DNA of 64,000 nt from the NCBI GenBank assembly GCA_041664385.1, contig JBAYKY010000001.1, positions 367-64,366 of the forward strand. The letters run 5' to 3'. This document shows, piece after piece, positions 5,732-38,543 of this stretch; within the stretch, counting starts at the first letter, position 1; every line of letters begins with the position of its first letter. The position numbers and the translations under genes were made by a program. The notes beneath the pieces are model-generated. The model saw nothing but the letters and a program-made list of their open reading frames with translations. It ran no database searches and had not been told where the DNA came from. The DNA comes from Minisyncoccota bacterium. GTDB taxonomy: Bacteria > Patescibacteriota > Minisyncoccia > UBA6257 > GWB1-50-10.

Positions 5732-5815
5732 GCGCGGGTGGCGAAACTGGCAGACGCACTACCTTGAGGTGGTAGCGCCCGCAAGGGCTTGCAGGTTCAA
5801 CTCCTGTCCCGCGCA
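5732..5815 (+). tRNA. tRNA-Leu (anticodon GAG), long variable arm; CCA not encoded
   Basis: Acceptor GCGCGGG/CCCGCGC; D-arm GGCAGACGC; anticodon stem CTACC/GGTAG with loop TTGAGGT; long variable arm; T-loop TTCAACT. Confidence 0.85.
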
Positions 5816-5823
5816 CTAATATC

Positions 5824-13351: not shown

Positions 13352-13423
13352 GGGTGTGTAGTTCAGTGGTAGAACGCTGTCCTGATAAGACAGAGGTCGA
13401 AGGTTCGATTCCTTCCACACCCA
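13352..13423 (+). tRNA. tRNA-Ile (anticodon GAU)
   Basis: Acceptor GGGTGTG/CACACCC; anticodon stem CTGTC/GACAG with loop CTGATAA; T-arm GAAGG-TTCGATT-CCTTC. Confidence 0.85.
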
Positions 13424-13507
13424 CAAAGAAAGGCCTTGTGAGGAGGTCTTTTCTTTACAAAGGGGGTTGTGCGAAGATTTTTGAAAACAATGAATATGGG
13501 CCTGTAG

Positions 13508-13584
13508 CTCAGTTGGTTAGAGCGCCTCATTTGCAATGAGGAGGTCACCGGTTCGAATCCGGTCAGGTCCACCAAAATTGTTGT
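13508..13584 (+). tRNA. tRNA-Ala (anticodon UGC), CCA encoded
   Basis: GGGCCTGTAGCTCAGTTGGTTAGAGCGC; anticodon stem CCTCA/TGAGG with loop TTTGCAA; ends GGTCCACCA. Confidence 0.88.
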
Positions 13585-28809: not shown

Positions 28810-29948
28810 ACATATTGATAGACGTGCGATTATTGAGTAAGGGACGAATTTCTGGCATTGAAGAATACACAAAATCTCTTATTCATAGCCTTTTAAAAGA
28901 AGGAAGCAAAGATACATTTCATTTTTTCTATAATGGTTTTCGCAAAGCACCTTTTCCTACAGAATGGAAAACGGCACCCAATGCCCATCTTATTGAATGG
29001 AATATTCCTAATAAACTCCTTGACCTTACCACGCGTTTTTTAGGATGGCCCCGCGTTGAACAGATTGCGCATGTCGACCTTGTCTTCAGCCCTCATTTCA
29101 ATCTCTTGCCCGCTACTAAGCACACCAAAAGAGTAATTACGTTTCACGATCTCTCATTTCTTCATTTTCCTGAATTTTATCCATTACGAAAAAGACTTTG
29201 GCACTGGCAACAGGATTATCGTACTCAAGCAATGCGTGCCGATGCACTTATCGCGGTTTCAGAATTTACGAGACAAGACCTTATATCCACATTTCATCTA
29301 CCAGAAGAAAAAGTGCATACCGTCTATTCCGGTATCAATCCTTTTTTCTCTGAATTGCCAGAAGAAAGTCCAGAACGTGCACGCTTTGCAAAAGAAAAAA
29401 ATCTTCAGCAACCATTTCTTTTATTTACAGGAGTGCTTGAACCACGTAAAAATGTGTCAGGAATCATCCGTGCATTTAATGAGATTAAAAAAAATCCATA
29501 TCACCGTGAATTACAACTCGTTATTGTCGGAAGGAAAGGCTGGCTCTATGATACAATTTTTAGAGATGCAGCAATGTCTCCCTGGTCACGCGACATTCGT
29601 TTTTGGGGAGAGGCATCTCTTGAAGATTTAAACCTTCTTTATAATCTTGCATCAGTATTTGTATATCCATCATTTTTTGAAGGATTCGGGTTCCCACCAC
29701 TTGAAGCACAGGCATGCGGCCTCCCGGTAATTACCTCAAATCGTTCATCATTACCTGAAATTGTAGGAGAAAGCGCACTTCTCGTTGATCCTTGGAAAAC
29801 TGACGAACTCATTACTTCAATTGACCTTGTGCTCCGTGATACTACGCTCGCAAACGATCTTAAGAAACGGGGGCGAATAAACAGTACGCGATTTTCTTGG
29901 CAACAGACCGCAACACAACTTCTTGAACTTTTTCATTCGCTCATTTAA
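28806..29948 (+). CDS. Glycosyltransferase family 4
   Basis: VYPSFFEGFGFPPLEAQACGLPVITS; start overlaps the upstream GT4 stop (ATGA). Confidence 0.85.
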   Translation: MNILIDVRLLSKGRISGIEEYTKSLIHSLLKEGSKDTFHFFYNGFRKAPFPTEWKTAPNAHLIEWNIPNKLLDLTTRFLGWPRVEQIAHVDLVFSPHFNLLPATKHTKRVITFHDLSFLHFPEFYPLRKRLWHWQQDYRTQAMRADALIAVSEFTRQDLISTFHLPEEKVHTVYSGINPFFSELPEESPERARFAKEKNLQQPFLLFTGVLEPRKNVSGIIRAFNEIKKNPYHRELQLVIVGRKGWLYDTIFRDAAMSPWSRDIRFWGEASLEDLNLLYNLASVFVYPSFFEGFGFPPLEAQACGLPVITSNRSSLPEIVGESALLVDPWKTDELITSIDLVLRDTTLANDLKKRGRINSTRFSWQQTATQLLELFHSLI

Positions 29949-29952
29949 CTCT

Positions 29953-32046
29953 ATGGCTCAAAAGGTTCCTATAAAAAACATTGATCCCGTTCTCGTTGAT
30001 ATAAAAAATCCGCGTATAAACTATACGTGGTCGTCTCATCACAAAATCATCGATTTGCGCAAAACACCTATGCATGAAGGAGGAAACTCGCGCACCATAA
30101 AATTTATTTTAAAAACTACACTTTTTGCAGTACTTGGTGTAGTTGCATTAGGAATTGTGTTTGAATCCTTCGTGCTCTTTCAAACAAAAGATGTGGTAAA
30201 AAGTGCCGGAGAAAAGATTGCACAAAATTTCTCGGTATCAGTAGATGCATTTCAAAATTTAGAACCCGATAAGGCAACGGCCGCACTCAAACAAAATGGT
30301 ACAGAGATTCATGAACTTGATGCCATTCTTGAAAATCGTCACACCTCAGGCTTCTTGAGCCTCCTCGGAACGATTATCCCCACATTCCGTGAGGCGGGGT
30401 CGCTTATAAAGCATGTGGCGACGCTCAATATGAGTTTCTTAAAACTTGCGGAAACAACGGATACCTTAAAACAAGATGGATTTACTGATTTTCAATCAAA
30501 TGGGGAAGTGCTCATCGAAAAAATGACACGCGCCCGAAACGCAATAAACAGCATTCTTGTTGAAGCACAAATAATTAAAAATGCGACTACAAATCTTAGA
30601 AAACTTTCTTCATTTTTTGATAAAGTAGATAGCGTAGTTGGAGAGAAATATCTCGCCCATAGTGCGGATCTCTATCGTGGAGATGCCGCGATTGAACATT
30701 TCTTATTGCTTGTAGGCTCCGAAAAAGAAAAGCACATTGCACTTTTTTTTCAAAATCCTGCAGAAATAAGACCAGGAGGTGGATTTATTGGAAGCTATGC
30801 GGATATGACCATACAAAAAGGACAAATGACCAATCTTGATGTCCGTGATATTTACGACCCAGATGGCCAATTTTTTGGAAAAATTACTCCTCCTTATCAA
30901 TTGCAAACCGTAAGCGAAAATTGGGGTGCTCGTGATGCAAATTGGTTTTTCGATTTTCCTACTTCTGCGAAAACAGTACTTGGTTTTCTTGAAGAATCAA
31001 AAATGTATTCCGAAAAAGGAATCACCTTTGATGGAGCCATCGCCATTAATATAGAAGTTATTGAAACACTTCTTTCGGTAACGGGACCCATTCCACTTCC
31101 TGAGTACAACCTTACCATCACGAGCGAAAACTTCCTTCCAGAGGTACAACGAGAAGTTGAGGCAGGAAAGGATAAGGCAGCAGGTCAACCAAAGAAGATA
31201 TTAAAGGTACTTACTCCAATGCTTCTTGAAAAACTAAAAGGTCTTGATGCAACAGGGAAAACGGATCTTATTAAGAAATTCACAAGTCACATTGGAAAGA
31301 AAGATATTATGTTCTATATGAAAGATAATGAGTTGTCATCGTTTTTAAATGACGCGAAAGCAAATGGAGCACTCTATGAAATTCCACGCGATTTTTGGGG
31401 TTCCTATCTTGCTGTTGTTGATGCAAATATAGCAGGCGGAAAAACAGATGCATTTATGACACAAGCAGTAAGTGCGGAAGTAAATGTTGATACAAGTGGT
31501 TCCATTCTTACCGATGTAACGGTAACGCGCACTCATAAAGGAGGGGCTCAAAAAGATCCTTGGTGGAATGCGGATAATAAAAACTTTATTCAAGTACTCA
31601 TGAATCCAGGTTCAAATCTTGTCACTATGAAGGGAAATACCGTAAAGCTGATAAAACCTACATTTGATTACGAAGCAAACGGCTATAGCAAAAATCCCGA
31701 TCTTGAGCGCATCGATTCATCGCGCGTTGCGCTTCCTGGATTTAACGCATGGACAATGAGTGAATTTGGCAAAACAGCATTTGCCACCTGGTTTACAGTT
31801 GCTCCCAAAAAAACAGGGACCTTGACGCTACGGGTACATACCGACAATACTGCGGAGGCGCCTCCTGAGGAAGGAAAGAAATACACCTTCGTATACGAAC
31901 GCCAATCGGGTGTTCCTACAAAGCTTTCGGTATCTGTTTCGGCCCCCGTTGGTTTTCTCTGGGCCGAATCGGGAACACCACTCTATACATTTACAAGTGA
32001 TGATGTGGAAGGACGCACACTGTTTACTCTCGAATTAAAACGATAA
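29953..32046 (+). CDS. DUF4012-like large membrane-anchored extracellular protein
   Basis: N-terminal TM helix then about 620 aa; FFQNPAEIRPGGGFIGSYADM resembles the DUF4012 signature; sits next to glycosyltransferases. Confidence 0.45.
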   Translation: MAQKVPIKNIDPVLVDIKNPRINYTWSSHHKIIDLRKTPMHEGGNSRTIKFILKTTLFAVLGVVALGIVFESFVLFQTKDVVKSAGEKIAQNFSVSVDAFQNLEPDKATAALKQNGTEIHELDAILENRHTSGFLSLLGTIIPTFREAGSLIKHVATLNMSFLKLAETTDTLKQDGFTDFQSNGEVLIEKMTRARNAINSILVEAQIIKNATTNLRKLSSFFDKVDSVVGEKYLAHSADLYRGDAAIEHFLLLVGSEKEKHIALFFQNPAEIRPGGGFIGSYADMTIQKGQMTNLDVRDIYDPDGQFFGKITPPYQLQTVSENWGARDANWFFDFPTSAKTVLGFLEESKMYSEKGITFDGAIAINIEVIETLLSVTGPIPLPEYNLTITSENFLPEVQREVEAGKDKAAGQPKKILKVLTPMLLEKLKGLDATGKTDLIKKFTSHIGKKDIMFYMKDNELSSFLNDAKANGALYEIPRDFWGSYLAVVDANIAGGKTDAFMTQAVSAEVNVDTSGSILTDVTVTRTHKGGAQKDPWWNADNKNFIQVLMNPGSNLVTMKGNTVKLIKPTFDYEANGYSKNPDLERIDSSRVALPGFNAWTMSEFGKTAFATWFTVAPKKTGTLTLRVHTDNTAEAPPEEGKKYTFVYERQSGVPTKLSVSVSAPVGFLWAESGTPLYTFTSDDVEGRTLFTLELKR

Positions 32047-34452: not shown

Positions 34453-34647
34453 TTGTGGGTAAGTGCTCATCCTATGAGTCACCGATTATTTAAAAAAATA
34501 GACGAGGAATTAGATGCTATCCTCGACGACTTTAACAAGAATTTTCATATTCCTCCAATTCTTTTGATGGCGTTGAAGTTGAAGCACTCGAATAAGATAC
34601 AGGAAATTATTAGGAAACATAACAAAAAGAATGAGGAAGAAGAGTAG
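34453..34647 (+). CDS. Hypothetical small protein
   Basis: ORF only. Confidence 0.3.
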   Translation: MWVSAHPMSHRLFKKIDEELDAILDDFNKNFHIPPILLMALKLKHSNKIQEIIRKHNKKNEEEE

Positions 34648-34700: not shown

Positions 34701-34771
34701 GTGGGATTGGTTCAGTGGTAGAATGCGACCTTCCCAAGGTTGAGACACGGGTTCGATTCCCGTATCCCGCA
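34701..34771 (+). tRNA. tRNA-Gly (anticodon CCC)
   Basis: Acceptor GTGGGAT/ATCCCGC (one G-U pair); D-arm TGGTTCAGTGGTAGAA; anticodon stem CGACC/GGTTG with loop TTCCCAA; T-arm ACGGG-TTCGATT-CCCGT. Confidence 0.8.
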
Positions 34772-34777
34772 CTAACA

Positions 34778-34866: not shown

Positions 34867-34962
34867 ATTTAAGTCGTCAAAATGCTATACTAAAAGTAAT
34901 AAAGCGAATGCATTGACATTTAGTTATTTCGATAGTATAATATAAACAAATAAATACACGTT

Positions 34963-35280
34963 ATGAACCAATCACGTATTGATGAGCTTATGAAAATAGA
35001 CTTGTTCGAAGCTTTGAATATTGATGGTCTTTCAGCAGAAAAAAAACTTGAAGCAATGGATGAAATTGCACAAGTTGCAATGAAAGGGATCTGGTTAAAG
35101 ATTCTTGAAAATCTCTCCGAAGAAGAACAAGAACAATTAAACTTACTTCTTGATAAAGAACCAAGCCCAGAAGAACTTACCACGTTTCTCAAAACGTCGA
35201 TTCCAGATCTTGAAAATCTCATTAAAGGAGAAATTGCTTCGTACAAGGCAATGCTTCTTCCTCCAGAAATCAATTTTTAA
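34963..35280 (+). CDS. Hypothetical small acidic protein (105 aa)
   Basis: ORF immediately upstream of the 1045-aa gene. Confidence 0.45.
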   Translation: MNQSRIDELMKIDLFEALNIDGLSAEKKLEAMDEIAQVAMKGIWLKILENLSEEEQEQLNLLLDKEPSPEELTTFLKTSIPDLENLIKGEIASYKAMLLPPEINF

Positions 35281-35293
35281 TTACCCTTAATAT

Positions 35294-38200
35294 ATGAATA
35301 TGGAAATACCTCCAAAAAGTACAGCGACTCCAAATAAAGAAGCAGAAAAGACTCAAGAAATCATCACTCCTGAGAAACTTAAGGTTGCTGAGGTGCTTCT
35401 TGGTGATGAAAATTTTAAAATTGATGACCTTTACGAGAAATCAAAAGAAAGTAAAGAACTCGTACTAAATCAAGATAAGGCCCGAGAAAAAATGAAGGAG
35501 GTGGAATCATTCTCTCCAGAGGCGCGGATACGTGCAGAAGAAGTAATCTCAGCACGCGAAGAAAGTGCTCGGGTTTTGGAACATGCATATGAAATAAAAA
35601 AGACCGAGACAGATTCTAACTCGAAAAAACTGAAAGTATCCGATATTCTTTCAAAAGAACAGCAAGATGCAAAAGAAAAGCATGAAAATGCAGTTATTGC
35701 GCTTAAGAAAACTCTTCTTCAGGATGCGGTAATAGAATTGCGTCAGAAATATGGCGAGGGACCTGAATTTGATAAACACGTAAAGGAGATTAAAGACCCG
35801 GCTCTTGAGCACCTTCGAAGAATTTCGGTTATGGAACTTGCACGTATGAACGATGCGCGCGAGAAGGTGAGTAAAGGAAACTCAAAAATTTGGGAAGGTA
35901 TTAAAAAACCATTCGCGGCTTTTGCAAAAATAGAACCACGAGCCCTGCGCTCTGTAGTGGGTTCAAGTATTTTTACTGCCGGACTTATTGGAGGAAGTGT
36001 CGCACTTAGTATTCCAATTGCAGCTGCAGCCGCAGGATATGGAACCTATGCAGCGTATCGTATAGGCCGCGCACTTGTAGGAGGTACTATTTCTGCTTTC
36101 GTACAAAAACATTTCACAAACAAAATTGTTGAAAGTGCATATAACGTAGATACAAAGAAAGCATACGAGGATATAAAACAAAGCACAAAAGAAAGTGTTG
36201 CTAAGCAAAATGTTGCGAGCGAACTTTTAGATCTCACAAACTTAGAAGAATTAGCATCCCGAAATTTTGAAACAGATAAGCAACTTGCAGATGAGTATTC
36301 AAAAAAGATGAAGAAGGCGCGACGCCTTCATACTGCGAACGCATTTGGTTCAGGTATTATTACCGGCGCTGCAGGAGGTATGATAGGTGCAAAAGGACTC
36401 GATTTTGGCGCAGGAAAATTTCATGAGTTTACTGGTGGAGGACACACACCCGAACATATTCCTGGTGTTGTACCAAAAGCGCCTACATGGGAATCTGCCA
36501 CCGCACAAAAAGGCGATTCAGTATGGAAAGTGGTTGAGCACGACCTCGACAAAAATATTCCTGGGTTTAAGGATATGACGGAGGCTCAGAGAACATATGT
36601 CATCGATCACTATAAAGATGCGGTGGTAGCAGACCCAGAGAAATTCGGTCTCACCGATCCTAATCAAGTAAAAATCGGATGGGGCAAGGAAGTAGATAAT
36701 CTTTTTACAGATAAACAAGAACTCGCAGAAACTATTGGCGCAGCAAAAGGATTGCGACCTGAAGAAATTCAGAATATTTTGCGTACCAACGAATTAAATC
36801 GTTTACACTCTGATGGTATTAGTCATGAAGAAGTTATACGAACGGAAGTACATACACCAGAGGAAGTGCGTCCTGCATTTTCGCCAGAAGATCAACGTAT
36901 GTATAGTCAGGCAATGCAAAATTATCGCGGAGGTGCCTTTGAAAAAGGTTCCGCCGCATGGAATGCTGCGCATGCACAAGGTGAGCAATCACTTCTTGCA
37001 TTAGCACACAATCATCCAGGAGTAATGCAAAATCCTAGTTACCAAGATTTCAAATACACCGTGCGCAATATCTACGGCGAACACCTTCAAAAGGAACTTG
37101 GTGAAGGTGGCATGTTTAAATTCCTACAAAGCGCGGATCATGACGATTTGATACGTGAAACTTCAGGTCTTGCAGAAACATTTGGTTTAAAACCTCAAGA
37201 AGCACAGATGTATGCATCATACCTTGGACAGGGTCATGAACTTGATGAAAATACATTTCGTCCATTTGTGAATCCTGAAACGGGGGAGATTTCTATGCAA
37301 CAATTTGCTCGTTCAATTGGTCAATTTGGTGCAATTGCTGAGAACAATCATGATCTTCCTGATATTCCCGCTGGAAAAATGGCGTCCGCATGGGAGCCAC
37401 GCATGATTCGCGTAGGCGACAATAATTATCTCGGTCTTGTCCGCAACGCAGGAGAAGGCAAATTTGAATATTCAATAGAACCAGGTGATGTAAGTGGTGC
37501 AAGTAAGACGGGTATGGAACTAATGCTTGAACAAGGAGCTAAGCCTCTTGCACTACACGCCGAAGCCCCTATAGAAAGTGTCCACCCAATGACAATAAAG
37601 GGGCTTGAACCGAATAAAATTACCACAGAACAATTCAAAGTTGAGAAAGTAGTAATTCCTCAGGATATAGAAGATCGGGTCGCTGCTGCACAAGCAAGAC
37701 TTCCTCAAGATATAGAGCGAATGACCTATCTTTCACAAAAGAATGCATTTGATTCGGTTCAAAAGGTATCTCCATTGAATGAATCTGCCATACCGAAAAC
37801 AAATTTCAATGCTCCGCTTGAACACACAATTGTTCCAGAAATAAACGAAGCAAATTCTGAAGAAACACTCGCTCGTGTAAATGACTTTACTAACCTTTCA
37901 AAACACAATGCATTTGATCAAGTTCAAAAAATACCTACATTAAATGAATCTGTCATACCGAAAACAAATTTCAATGCTCCGCTTGAACATGTAAACGTTC
38001 AAGAAGCAATTGCATTTAAAGCAGAGAATACTGAACAGATACATGGCGCAATGACTACCATTGGAAAAGCATATGGTCTAAACCAGGATCAAACTGCAGT
38101 ATTTGAGCGTTATATTACAAATGGAGAAAAGTTAAGTCCAGAAACAATAAAAGGATATATAAACCCAGAAACAAACAGCATAAGTCCTACCAAAGTTTCT

Positions 38201-38431
38201 GGTGCTATAGAAAGTTTTAAAGAAGCCATGTGGAAAAAGGATATTCCTCAAGGAGAGTGGGAACCGAGGATGATGAAATTCCGATTCGGGAATGATTTTA
38301 CCGATCAACTCGCAATTGTGAAAAAAACAGGATCAGATTCATATGAAGTTATAGTTGGAAATCACCACCTATCTTCAGTGCCTGAAAACCAAATTCAAAA
38401 AGCAATAGCTGACGTAAAAATTATAGAATAA
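35294..38431 (+). CDS. Large orphan membrane-associated protein (1045 aa) with internal repeats
   Basis: Acidic coiled-coil-like N-terminus, hydrophobic segment around residues 215-265, C-terminal duplicated about 30-aa repeat and two WEPRM-containing modules. Confidence 0.6.
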   Translation: MNMEIPPKSTATPNKEAEKTQEIITPEKLKVAEVLLGDENFKIDDLYEKSKESKELVLNQDKAREKMKEVESFSPEARIRAEEVISAREESARVLEHAYEIKKTETDSNSKKLKVSDILSKEQQDAKEKHENAVIALKKTLLQDAVIELRQKYGEGPEFDKHVKEIKDPALEHLRRISVMELARMNDAREKVSKGNSKIWEGIKKPFAAFAKIEPRALRSVVGSSIFTAGLIGGSVALSIPIAAAAAGYGTYAAYRIGRALVGGTISAFVQKHFTNKIVESAYNVDTKKAYEDIKQSTKESVAKQNVASELLDLTNLEELASRNFETDKQLADEYSKKMKKARRLHTANAFGSGIITGAAGGMIGAKGLDFGAGKFHEFTGGGHTPEHIPGVVPKAPTWESATAQKGDSVWKVVEHDLDKNIPGFKDMTEAQRTYVIDHYKDAVVADPEKFGLTDPNQVKIGWGKEVDNLFTDKQELAETIGAAKGLRPEEIQNILRTNELNRLHSDGISHEEVIRTEVHTPEEVRPAFSPEDQRMYSQAMQNYRGGAFEKGSAAWNAAHAQGEQSLLALAHNHPGVMQNPSYQDFKYTVRNIYGEHLQKELGEGGMFKFLQSADHDDLIRETSGLAETFGLKPQEAQMYASYLGQGHELDENTFRPFVNPETGEISMQQFARSIGQFGAIAENNHDLPDIPAGKMASAWEPRMIRVGDNNYLGLVRNAGEGKFEYSIEPGDVSGASKTGMELMLEQGAKPLALHAEAPIESVHPMTIKGLEPNKITTEQFKVEKVVIPQDIEDRVAAAQARLPQDIERMTYLSQKNAFDSVQKVSPLNESAIPKTNFNAPLEHTIVPEINEANSEETLARVNDFTNLSKHNAFDQVQKIPTLNESVIPKTNFNAPLEHVNVQEAIAFKAENTEQIHGAMTTIGKAYGLNQDQTAVFERYITNGEKLSPETIKGYINPETNSISPTKVSGAIESFKEAMWKKDIPQGEWEPRMMKFRFGNDFTDQLAIVKKTGSDSYEVIVGNHHLSSVPENQIQKAIADVKIIE

Positions 38432-38543
38432 TCTGTCTCTGTTTCTAAAAAGTCCCACTCACTAAAGTGGGGCTTTTTATTGACGTAGTGCCATTTTTCT
38501 TGTATAAAGATACCAGTTAATTTAATAATAACTGGAGGAACTA

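Follow-up and report, generated by a model that had tools for sequence, protein, structure and literature searches.

MapZ, RodZ and the pairs that GpsB forms with penicillin-binding proteins (PBPs) are bitopic scaffolds of cell division or of the envelope, each with a cytoplasmic adaptor. A large part of bacterial diversity belongs to the candidate phyla radiation (CPR, or Patescibacteria), in which the majority of conserved lineage-specific genes lack an assigned function. Here we describe a pair of such genes, encoding an acidic protein of 105 aa and a membrane protein of 1045 aa (hereafter the small and the large protein), in a 64,000-nucleotide stretch of a Minisyncoccota bacterium (NCBI GenBank assembly GCA_041664385.1, contig JBAYKY010000001.1, positions 367 to 64,366 of the forward strand). 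This whole stretch is called the window; positions refer to it unless another locus is named, and loci carry L numbers. The small protein belongs with the DUF5663 family (PF18908), and comparison of homologous loci gives good support for the view that the pair is a conserved, CPR-specific two-gene module. Tentatively, we take the pair to be one copy of a Patescibacteria-specific two-component envelope module in which the large protein is a core transmembrane envelope scaffold.

A similar gene arrangement is known from Southlakia epibionticum (Saccharibacteria), for which a transposon-sequencing (Tn-seq) study has been reported (PMC10633639; Wang et al. 2023, Cell; Tables S1 and S2). In that study, SEML1_0162, a DUF5663 gene, was essential at both outgrowth time points, and its DUF5663 family was flagged as core and Patescibacteria-enriched. 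SEML1_0161, a hypothetical gene of 2304 nt ending 14 nt upstream of SEML1_0162, was also essential, with 99 insertions in the input DNA and then 12, 0 and 0, while SEML1_0163, a second DUF5663 gene, showed a growth defect. The predicted fold of the SEML1_0163 product resembles the trigger-factor C-terminal domain and LTXXQ/Spy-like chaperone folds (Table S2 of the same study). As in the window, a large gene (767 aa) stands beside DUF5663 genes on the same strand, here with a gap of 14 nt; in contrast to the window, the large gene comes first and is followed by DUF5663, of which there are two copies. The order large gene then DUF5663 also occurs in the Saccharibacteria loci L014, L015 and L038.

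Distribution of the large protein and its constant partner

An earlier description of the window, made from the sequence alone (the sequence-only reading), regarded the large protein as an orphan. This does not hold, as full-length orthologues with conserved synteny exist and a signature domain within the protein marks at least 477 clusters at 50% identity. A word-indexed homology search returned five proteins, namely the window protein itself and relatives at 66%, 54%, 34% and 37% (partial) identity. An exhaustive HMMER search with a profile of aa 395-745, in which representatives of 50%-identity clusters were counted, gave at least 477 representatives at E<=1e-3, 240 at E<=1e-10 and 14 at E<=1e-30. 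Nearly all of the 477 match profile positions ~7-110 only, corresponding to window aa ~401-505, in proteins of 500-1700 aa, and most of the members listed have hydrophobic segments, mostly 100-300 aa upstream of this signature domain. The layout is shared across the family: a charged N-terminal region of variable length, Gly-rich membrane segments and then the signature domain. A profile from which the clade of the window was left out recovers the large protein at E 6.4e-37. According to the titles of the metagenome-assembled genomes (MAGs), the close relatives belong to Candidatus Paceibacterota and the distant matches to Wolfebacteria, Nomurabacteria, Moraniibacteria and Saccharibacteria. 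The loci L016, L017 and L018 carry the signature domain yet are filed under 'Gammaproteobacteria' or 'Methanosarcinales' MAGs, and are probably mis-binned; in L018, an FtsK gene and a metallo-beta-lactamase-fold gene are arranged as in the Patescibacteria locus L013.

Of 39 loci with the signature domain, 32 have a DUF5663-like open reading frame (ORF) that directly adjoins the large gene and shares its strand. The 39, a few of which are redundant, are the window, 16 metagenome contigs and the loci from 18 genome or protein look-ups and from 4 more. They span several CPR classes, and the DUF5663 ORF lies 5' of the large gene in some lineages and 3' in others; among the seven loci lacking an adjoining copy, several stop at a contig edge. 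The suggestion that the small protein is a partner of the large one is thus supported by gene order, and the small protein is very likely its functional partner. While DUF5663 is in Pfam, the domain of the large protein is absent from the Pfam copy searched, and a full-text search on DUF5663 in one library of papers found no earlier description of the pairing.

Scans against Pfam, NCBIfam and PHROGs gave no significant family match for either protein, and the 45 full-length family members have no recurring significant Pfam domain. Weak matches to Prok-JAB, EcsC and DUF4358 were dropped, since none recurred among the 45 relatives. The large protein could be assigned to no housekeeping family, its ORF is intact in all relatives seen, and its description as a membrane protein with internal repeats and without a recognisable enzymatic domain stands. 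A large, repeat-bearing and unannotated gene could in principle derive from a mobile element or phage, or be a spurious ORF. However, the gene is syntenic as well as intact in all relatives, the G+C of the pair equals that of its flanks, PHROGs gave no match, a search of 2.9 million viral contigs returned no relatives, and two domains have confident AlphaFold2 models. The conservation data effectively refute such an origin, and we give it almost no weight.

The small protein as a divergent DUF5663 member

The small protein is indeed acidic, as first described, with a net charge of -12; it has neither a membrane segment nor a signal peptide, and the genomes that carry it are CPR MAGs. It gives no match to PF18908 even at E<=10 (the Pfam gathering threshold is 23.7 bits). 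Its syntenic counterparts in L003 and L004 exceed that threshold (6.4e-8 for the L003 protein), and BLASTP aligns it with the L003 member at 4e-12, with 28% identity over 96 aa. A DUF5663 profile built without the window and L002 recovers it at E 6.6e-24 (78.9 bits); among the 496 ORFs of the window, this clade-excluded profile matches no other. In addition, 21 of 23 positional neighbours match PF18908, the best at 4.7e-12. The small protein aligns end to end with threshold-passing members of this Patescibacteria-enriched family of ~100 aa and shares their length, acidity and genomic position; judged by these alignments, it is a divergent DUF5663 member which, along with its closest relatives, differs in scoring below the detection of the Pfam model. 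As PF18908 has no assigned function, membership gives the small protein a name rather than an explanation.

An alignment of 23 DUF5663 sequences has no invariant column, and L23 is the only nearly invariant one. A conserved WxG is absent from this alignment, as is any other known secretion-substrate motif. Type VII-like secretion (WXG100 with FtsK) was rejected on the lack of a conserved WxG and on the occurrence of FtsK in only 2 of the 39 loci, with none near the window pair. A search of the PDB with the DUF5663 profile gave a marginal match to the GpsB N-terminal domain (E 0.018, query positions 53-101). On the - strand, a 117-aa ORF (34920-35273) runs antisense to nearly the whole DUF5663 gene and is probably a shadow ORF.

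Layout of the pair

Both ORFs were found with exactly the coordinates and lengths first given for them (Table 1). The promoter-like site lies directly 3' of a terminator-like hairpin that trails tRNA-Gly(CCC) (34701-34772). Like the terminator-like site of the pair, it is a predicted signal, identified by consensus match only. With its own promoter-like site, a 13-nt gap between the genes and a terminator-like hairpin behind them, the pair looks like a self-contained bicistronic unit. Between the translation of the window and P0001, an ENA database protein given as 100% identical, there is one difference, Ala693Val at codon 693 of the large gene (37370-37372), so the window and the assembly of P0001 are not identical sequences. 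A 64-aa Lys/Glu-rich ORF lies at 34453-34647, between DivIC and tRNA-Gly; in L001, a 56-aa gene is called at the corresponding place, the two being matched by position only.

Table 1. Features of the gene pair, in window positions (amino acid numbers are those of the large protein)
Feature	Position	Strand	Remarks
Promoter-like TTGACA-17 nt-TATAAT	34913..34941	+	12/12 consensus match; 22 nt 5' of small-gene ATG
Small gene, 105 aa	34963..35280	+	ORF listing
Large membrane-protein gene, 1045 aa	35294..38431	+	ORF listing; 13 nt 3' of small gene
N-terminal region, aa 1-217	35294..35944	+	Mixed-charge, Lys/Glu-rich, no signal peptide; inferred cytoplasmic
Gly/Ala-rich hydrophobic hairpin, aa 218-275	35945..36118	+	Two predicted membrane helices with Pro turn
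Third membrane segment (predicted), aa 347-368	36332..36397	+	Glycine-zipper-like (ANAFGSGIITGAAGGMIGAKGL); preceded by KKMKKARRLH
Signature domain, aa 401-505	36494..36808	+	KGDSVW...EAxxTYxIDxxKD...P..FGL...; helical; first 16 residues match LysM beta1-alpha1 half
WEPR module 1, aa 616-739	37139..37510	+	4-helix bundle, 4-stranded sheet, C-terminal helix (model)
Linker duplication, copy 1	37730..37840	+	55-codon period; protein repeat NAFDSVQKVSPLNESAIPKTNFNAPLEH...
Linker duplication, copy 2	37895..38005	+	84% identical to copy 1 (DNA)
WEPR module 2, aa 915-1031	38036..38386	+	28% identical to module 1
Terminator-like hairpin (CCCACTCACTAAAGTGGG) then T-run	38454..38480	+	Consensus match; 23 nt past large-gene stop

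Membrane segments and topology

The N-terminal region of the large protein, whose length across the family ranges from about 200 to >900 aa, had been called acidic over its first 200 aa. This is inaccurate, as the N-terminal 215 aa contain 15% Glu and 15% Lys and carry a net charge of -2. The Gly/Ala-rich hydrophobic segment that follows is real (aa 215-280, with 18% Ala and 14% Gly), showing Kyte-Doolittle peaks at aa 218-254 and, within aa 218-262, two Gly/Ala-rich helices joined by a Pro turn. A second Gly-rich hydrophobic segment, missed by the sequence-only reading, was found at aa 347-368 (GSGIITGAAGGMIGA). The loop between the hairpin and this third segment (aa 276-346) is Lys/Arg-rich and ends in KKMKKARRLH. 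Across 45 family members, G243 and G263 show almost no variation. Membrane anchoring with conserved Gly-rich segments is well supported, as is a juxtamembrane signature domain that defines the family.

The orientation was read from the distribution of charge. Among 117 proteins of the family, the 15 aa before the scored hydrophobic segment contain on average 4.4 Lys/Arg vs. 1.7 in the 15 aa after it; the segment scored was the most hydrophobic low-charge one within ~160 aa upstream of the signature domain. In some proteins, that of the window among them, the search picked the second hairpin helix instead of the last segment. The positive-inside rule then places the N-terminus inside, followed by the hairpin, a cytoplasmic loop, the third helix and the C-terminus outside. 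We infer from this that the N-terminal region and the loop are cytoplasmic, that the hairpin and the third helix span the membrane and that everything from about aa 370 onward lies outside the cell.

The inverse arrangement would have two spanning segments, with the signature domain and the WEPR modules in the cytoplasm as parts of an intracellular membrane-tethered scaffold. Both aa 241-262 and aa 347-368 are weakly hydrophobic (1.2-1.4 on the Kyte-Doolittle scale), and the fold matches of the WEPR module (MLLE and Tudor) are to intracellular proteins, both of which would suit such an arrangement. However, it fits poorly with the Lys/Arg-rich loop and the KKMKKARR directly before the third segment, with the family-wide charge bias, and with the rapid divergence of the distal third, which is typical of exposed regions. 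Moreover, LysM-type motifs are normally extracytoplasmic. We consider the inverse arrangement improbable.

The signature domain and its relation to LysM

An AlphaFold2 model of the signature domain (aa 395-520, from a 40-sequence alignment) is all-helical, with a predicted local distance difference test (pLDDT) score of 84.5 and a predicted template modelling (pTM) score of 0.74; fold searches gave no match. LysM is the commonest weak Pfam match in full-length family members (6 of 45), and when the domains of relatives were isolated, seven of ten matched Pfam LysM over positions 2-16, with two exceeding the gathering score. A PDB profile search matched the LysM of SafA to the second half of the domain (E 0.012) and LytE to the first half (E 0.41). 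Comparison with LysM by hhalign gave a probability of 93.9 over 16 columns only, against an approximate LysM alignment. Support for LysM as the fold of the domain extends to its first 16 residues alone, and the fold searches are negative. Thus, the signature domain is possibly a LysM derivative with a helical insertion and extension, and not an established LysM domain. Matches to TALE repeats in the PDB (E about 1e-8) were rejected, as no single stretch passes; the score arises from adding up weak similarities between 'GLtPEQv..Ia.nn' repeats and one helix of the signature domain.

The distal region and the adhesin question

Two segments containing WEPRM had been reported. Both are real (aa 700-704 and 989-993), and both sit in a duplicated module of ~120 aa, the two copies of which align at a pairwise E of 6e-12. 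The residues W-E-P-R are invariant in 16 copies of this module. The AlphaFold2 model (aa 613-750, 16 copies; pLDDT 91.7, pTM 0.85) has four helices, a four-stranded sheet and a terminal helix, resembling an MLLE-like bundle joined to a Tudor/SH3-like barrel, while a PDB-sequence profile search with the module found nothing. The number of modules varies among relatives, which carry one, two or three. While the family extends across the CPR, its WEPR modules occur in one narrow clade only, with about 14 representatives.

Between the two modules lies a duplicated linker, with copies of 111 nt spaced in frame by 165 nt, i.e., 55 codons. The sequence-only reading had recognised this duplication and its identity (about 85%, here 84%); its coordinates (37741-37828 versus 37907-37992) and its period of 166 bp are replaced by those found here. 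The 165-bp duplication escaped Tandem Repeats Finder, whose threshold is not reached by two copies 54 nt apart. At the protein level, aa 817-858 and aa 872-913 share 27 of 42 residues (64%; pairwise E 3e-17).

Compared with L005, the closest other species, the flanking proteins are 86-97% identical and the DUF5663 protein is 91% identical, while the large protein is 73% identical overall, with 78-89% over aa 1-745 and 41-43% over aa 746-1045. Divergence is thus concentrated in the distal third, as is the duplication of modules and linkers, and its variable and modular character is well supported. The divergence matches what would be expected of surface exposure; likewise, the suggestion that the repeat-bearing C-terminal part is exposed outside the cell fits both the positive-inside analysis and the fast divergence.

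These features bear on host attachment, a role first suggested for the large protein. In an adhesin of this kind, the C-terminal repeats and WEPR modules would bind a host surface, with the rest serving as an anchor and the DUF5663 protein as a chaperone. We consider this unlikely, though it accounts for several observations. The distal third is hypervariable and changes by duplication of modules and linkers; it probably lies outside the cell; and the modelled WEPR module joins two folds that bind peptides in other proteins. Furthermore, all cultivated CPR bacteria are epibionts, and SEML1_0163 resembles chaperone folds (PMC10633639). However, no signal peptide, sortase motif, Ig-like, beta-helix or other adhesin-type repeat was found, none of the 45 family members has an adhesin Pfam domain, and the repeats of the window protein appear, from the models, to be helical or Tudor-like modules. 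Conservation is highest in the membrane segments and the juxtamembrane domain rather than at the tip, and a cytoplasmic region of 200 to >900 aa with a dedicated cytoplasmic partner is unusual for a simple adhesin. The narrow range of the WEPR modules within a CPR-wide family points the same way. The single copy of the gene in the window, its conserved housekeeping synteny, the CPR-wide spread and the large cytoplasmic domain make a core envelope role at least as likely. An adhesin accounts less well than an envelope scaffold for the conserved cytoplasmic and membrane parts, and the two readings are not mutually exclusive.

Genomic neighbourhood and the translocation question

The large gene is single-copy in the window. 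The gene order LepA, small membrane protein, DivIC, ~105-aa gene, large gene, CDP-alcohol phosphatidyltransferase, HisRS and Dus is kept among relatives, and with tRNA-Gly between DivIC and the pair this synteny holds down to relatives at 34% identity. In other lineages, the neighbours include MurA, a PBP2-type transpeptidase, FtsK, GreA and DUF72.

In about 8 of the 39 loci, the pair is adjoined by an ATPase of ~800 aa of the VirD4/TrwB/DUF87 (DUF8128) kind, resembling a type IV coupling protein (T4CP). These T4CP-like ATPases (L012 3188-5665, L014 3822-6284, L020 2821-3309, L024 3736-6489, L034 5614-6540 and L036 3332-5749) show matches of the DUF8128, DUF87 and TrwB/VirD4 types, carry a membrane segment at the N-terminus and come from several unrelated CPR lineages. 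They may be among the 'orphan' T4CP homologues counted in a 2025 survey, in which 148 of 5,713 VirD4-like homologues in 2,918 Patescibacteria genomes lay near virB4, so that most have no known partner (PMC12102498). Small proteins encoded between DUF5663 and the ATPase in L012 (2641-3081) and L014 (3557-3772) have no Pfam match and share a C-terminal motif, A..KG...AV..A..LD..Y.LDEFHD.L.

The pair could be pictured as part of a translocation apparatus, or as one of its clients, with the driving force supplied by such orphan VirD4/TrwB-like (DUF8128-DUF87) ATPases or by FtsK, with the large protein as membrane conduit or wall anchor and the DUF5663 protein as adaptor or substrate. The T4CP-like gene stands beside the pair in L012, L014, L020, L024, L034 and L036/L037, a DUF8128 protein is near it in L038, FtsK adjoins it in L013 and lies just upstream in L018 (there with a weaker domain match and no DUF5663 neighbour), and the glycine-zipper membrane segments are conserved. 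However, the association with the ATPase is limited to those few loci, and neither such an ATPase nor its small neighbours were found by tblastn within the 64-kb window. According to PMC12102498, S. epibionticum can dispense with its T4CP homologue, whereas SEML1_0161 and SEML1_0162 are essential, and DUF5663 shows no WxG or comparable substrate motif. We regard such a role as quite unlikely. A type IV secretion system (T4SS) or T4CP module at the window itself was rejected: the 64 kb contain no T4CP-like gene, and no other T4SS genes were seen in the 8 of 39 loci that have one.

Elsewhere in the window, an ORF of ~707 aa directly upstream of LepA (29923-32046) is 88.5% identical to its L005 counterpart; at the equivalent position, L001 and L003 have DUF4012 proteins preceded by a GT4 glycosyltransferase. 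The genes for tRNA-Ile(GAT) (13352-13424) and tRNA-Ala(TGC) (13498-13574) stand 74 nt apart, a pair typical of the 16S-23S spacer, and Rfam found no rRNA in the window at gathering thresholds. At 5732-5816, ARAGORN calls an 85-nt tRNA-Leu(GAG) for which the Rfam tRNA model is silent at the gathering score.

Proposed role of the pair

In the envelope-scaffold reading that we favour, the large protein would span the membrane and act as a scaffold in the core of the cell envelope. The juxtamembrane signature domain, possibly LysM-derived, may contact the cell wall, and the modular distal part, which evolves fast and comprises a helical spacer, WEPR modules and repeated linkers, would be displayed on the surface and bind a peptide or glycan ligand. 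The acidic DUF5663 protein, taken as all-helical, would bind or chaperone the basic cytoplasmic parts of the large protein, and the two proteins probably interact. A housekeeping module, serving envelope growth or division, would be more likely than an accessory adhesin. In favour of a core role are the flank-like G+C, the lack of viral relatives and of a PHROGs match, and the neighbouring MurA, PBP2-type and FtsK genes in other lineages.

Several points weigh against this proposal. No member of either family has a demonstrated function. The cell-division and envelope neighbours are a minority, and their presence could be a coincidence in small, gene-dense genomes. The topology derives from statistics of hydrophobicity and charge; without a spanning segment at aa 241-262, the C-terminus would lie in the cytoplasm. 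The signature domain of the window protein itself has no LysM match (the Pfam model has 43 positions and a threshold of 20.9 bits). The GpsB-like match of DUF5663 is marginal, and Pfam DivIVA is not among the 25 commonest weak matches listed for 23 DUF5663 members. No fusion of DUF5663 with the large protein occurs among 158 family members, and a physical interaction thus has no Rosetta-stone support. Finally, SEML1_0161 is placed in the large-protein family by its position only.

A stronger proposal, which we think rather unlikely, is that the pair is an essential, Patescibacteria-wide envelope machine without counterpart in other bacteria. It might be, for example, a scaffold coupling the cytoplasm to wall growth, to division or to the junction between epibiont and host, and would combine a LysM-derived wall-contact domain, a glycine-zipper membrane core and lineage-specific surface modules such as WEPR.

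What had appeared to be an orphan is now a defined and testable unit, i.e., a gene pair found in several CPR classes, with a delimited domain that is not in Pfam, a predicted topology, two confidently modelled domains and a plausible link to Tn-seq-essential genes of the one relative open to genetic work. Conserved families of this sort are common in CPR bacteria, and this one is widespread and probably important. If the pair is a core component of the envelope or of division, it would help to explain how ultra-small cells with a reduced conventional toolkit build their envelope and divide; if the large protein is an adhesin, host specificity might lie in its variable WEPR modules.

Comparison with known systems

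We note three comparisons with known domains and systems. First, the signature domain opens with the beta1-alpha1 motif of LysM (PF01476), 'tV.KGDSvWk.ae', and in relatives a stretch 'dpD.ik.GQkIdf' resembles its alpha2-beta2 end; like the wall-binding LysM of membrane-anchored proteins, the domain is probably extracytoplasmic. It differs from LysM in having ~25 extra helical residues between the two halves and three more helices after them, and the copy in the window has lost the GQK motif (GWGKEV). Second, whereas MLLE/PABC and Tudor/SH3-like folds are each recognisable in the model of the WEPR module, their combination and the invariant WEPR motif have no described counterpart. Third, the pair can be set beside the scaffolds with which we began. 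Homology to MapZ, RodZ or the GpsB-PBP pairs is not detectable, and the likeness is one of analogy rather than family membership. By that analogy, the large protein would share with them a coiled or charged cytoplasmic region, one or more membrane anchors and a helical extracytoplasmic domain near the wall, and the DUF5663 protein would correspond to their small helical cytoplasmic partner.

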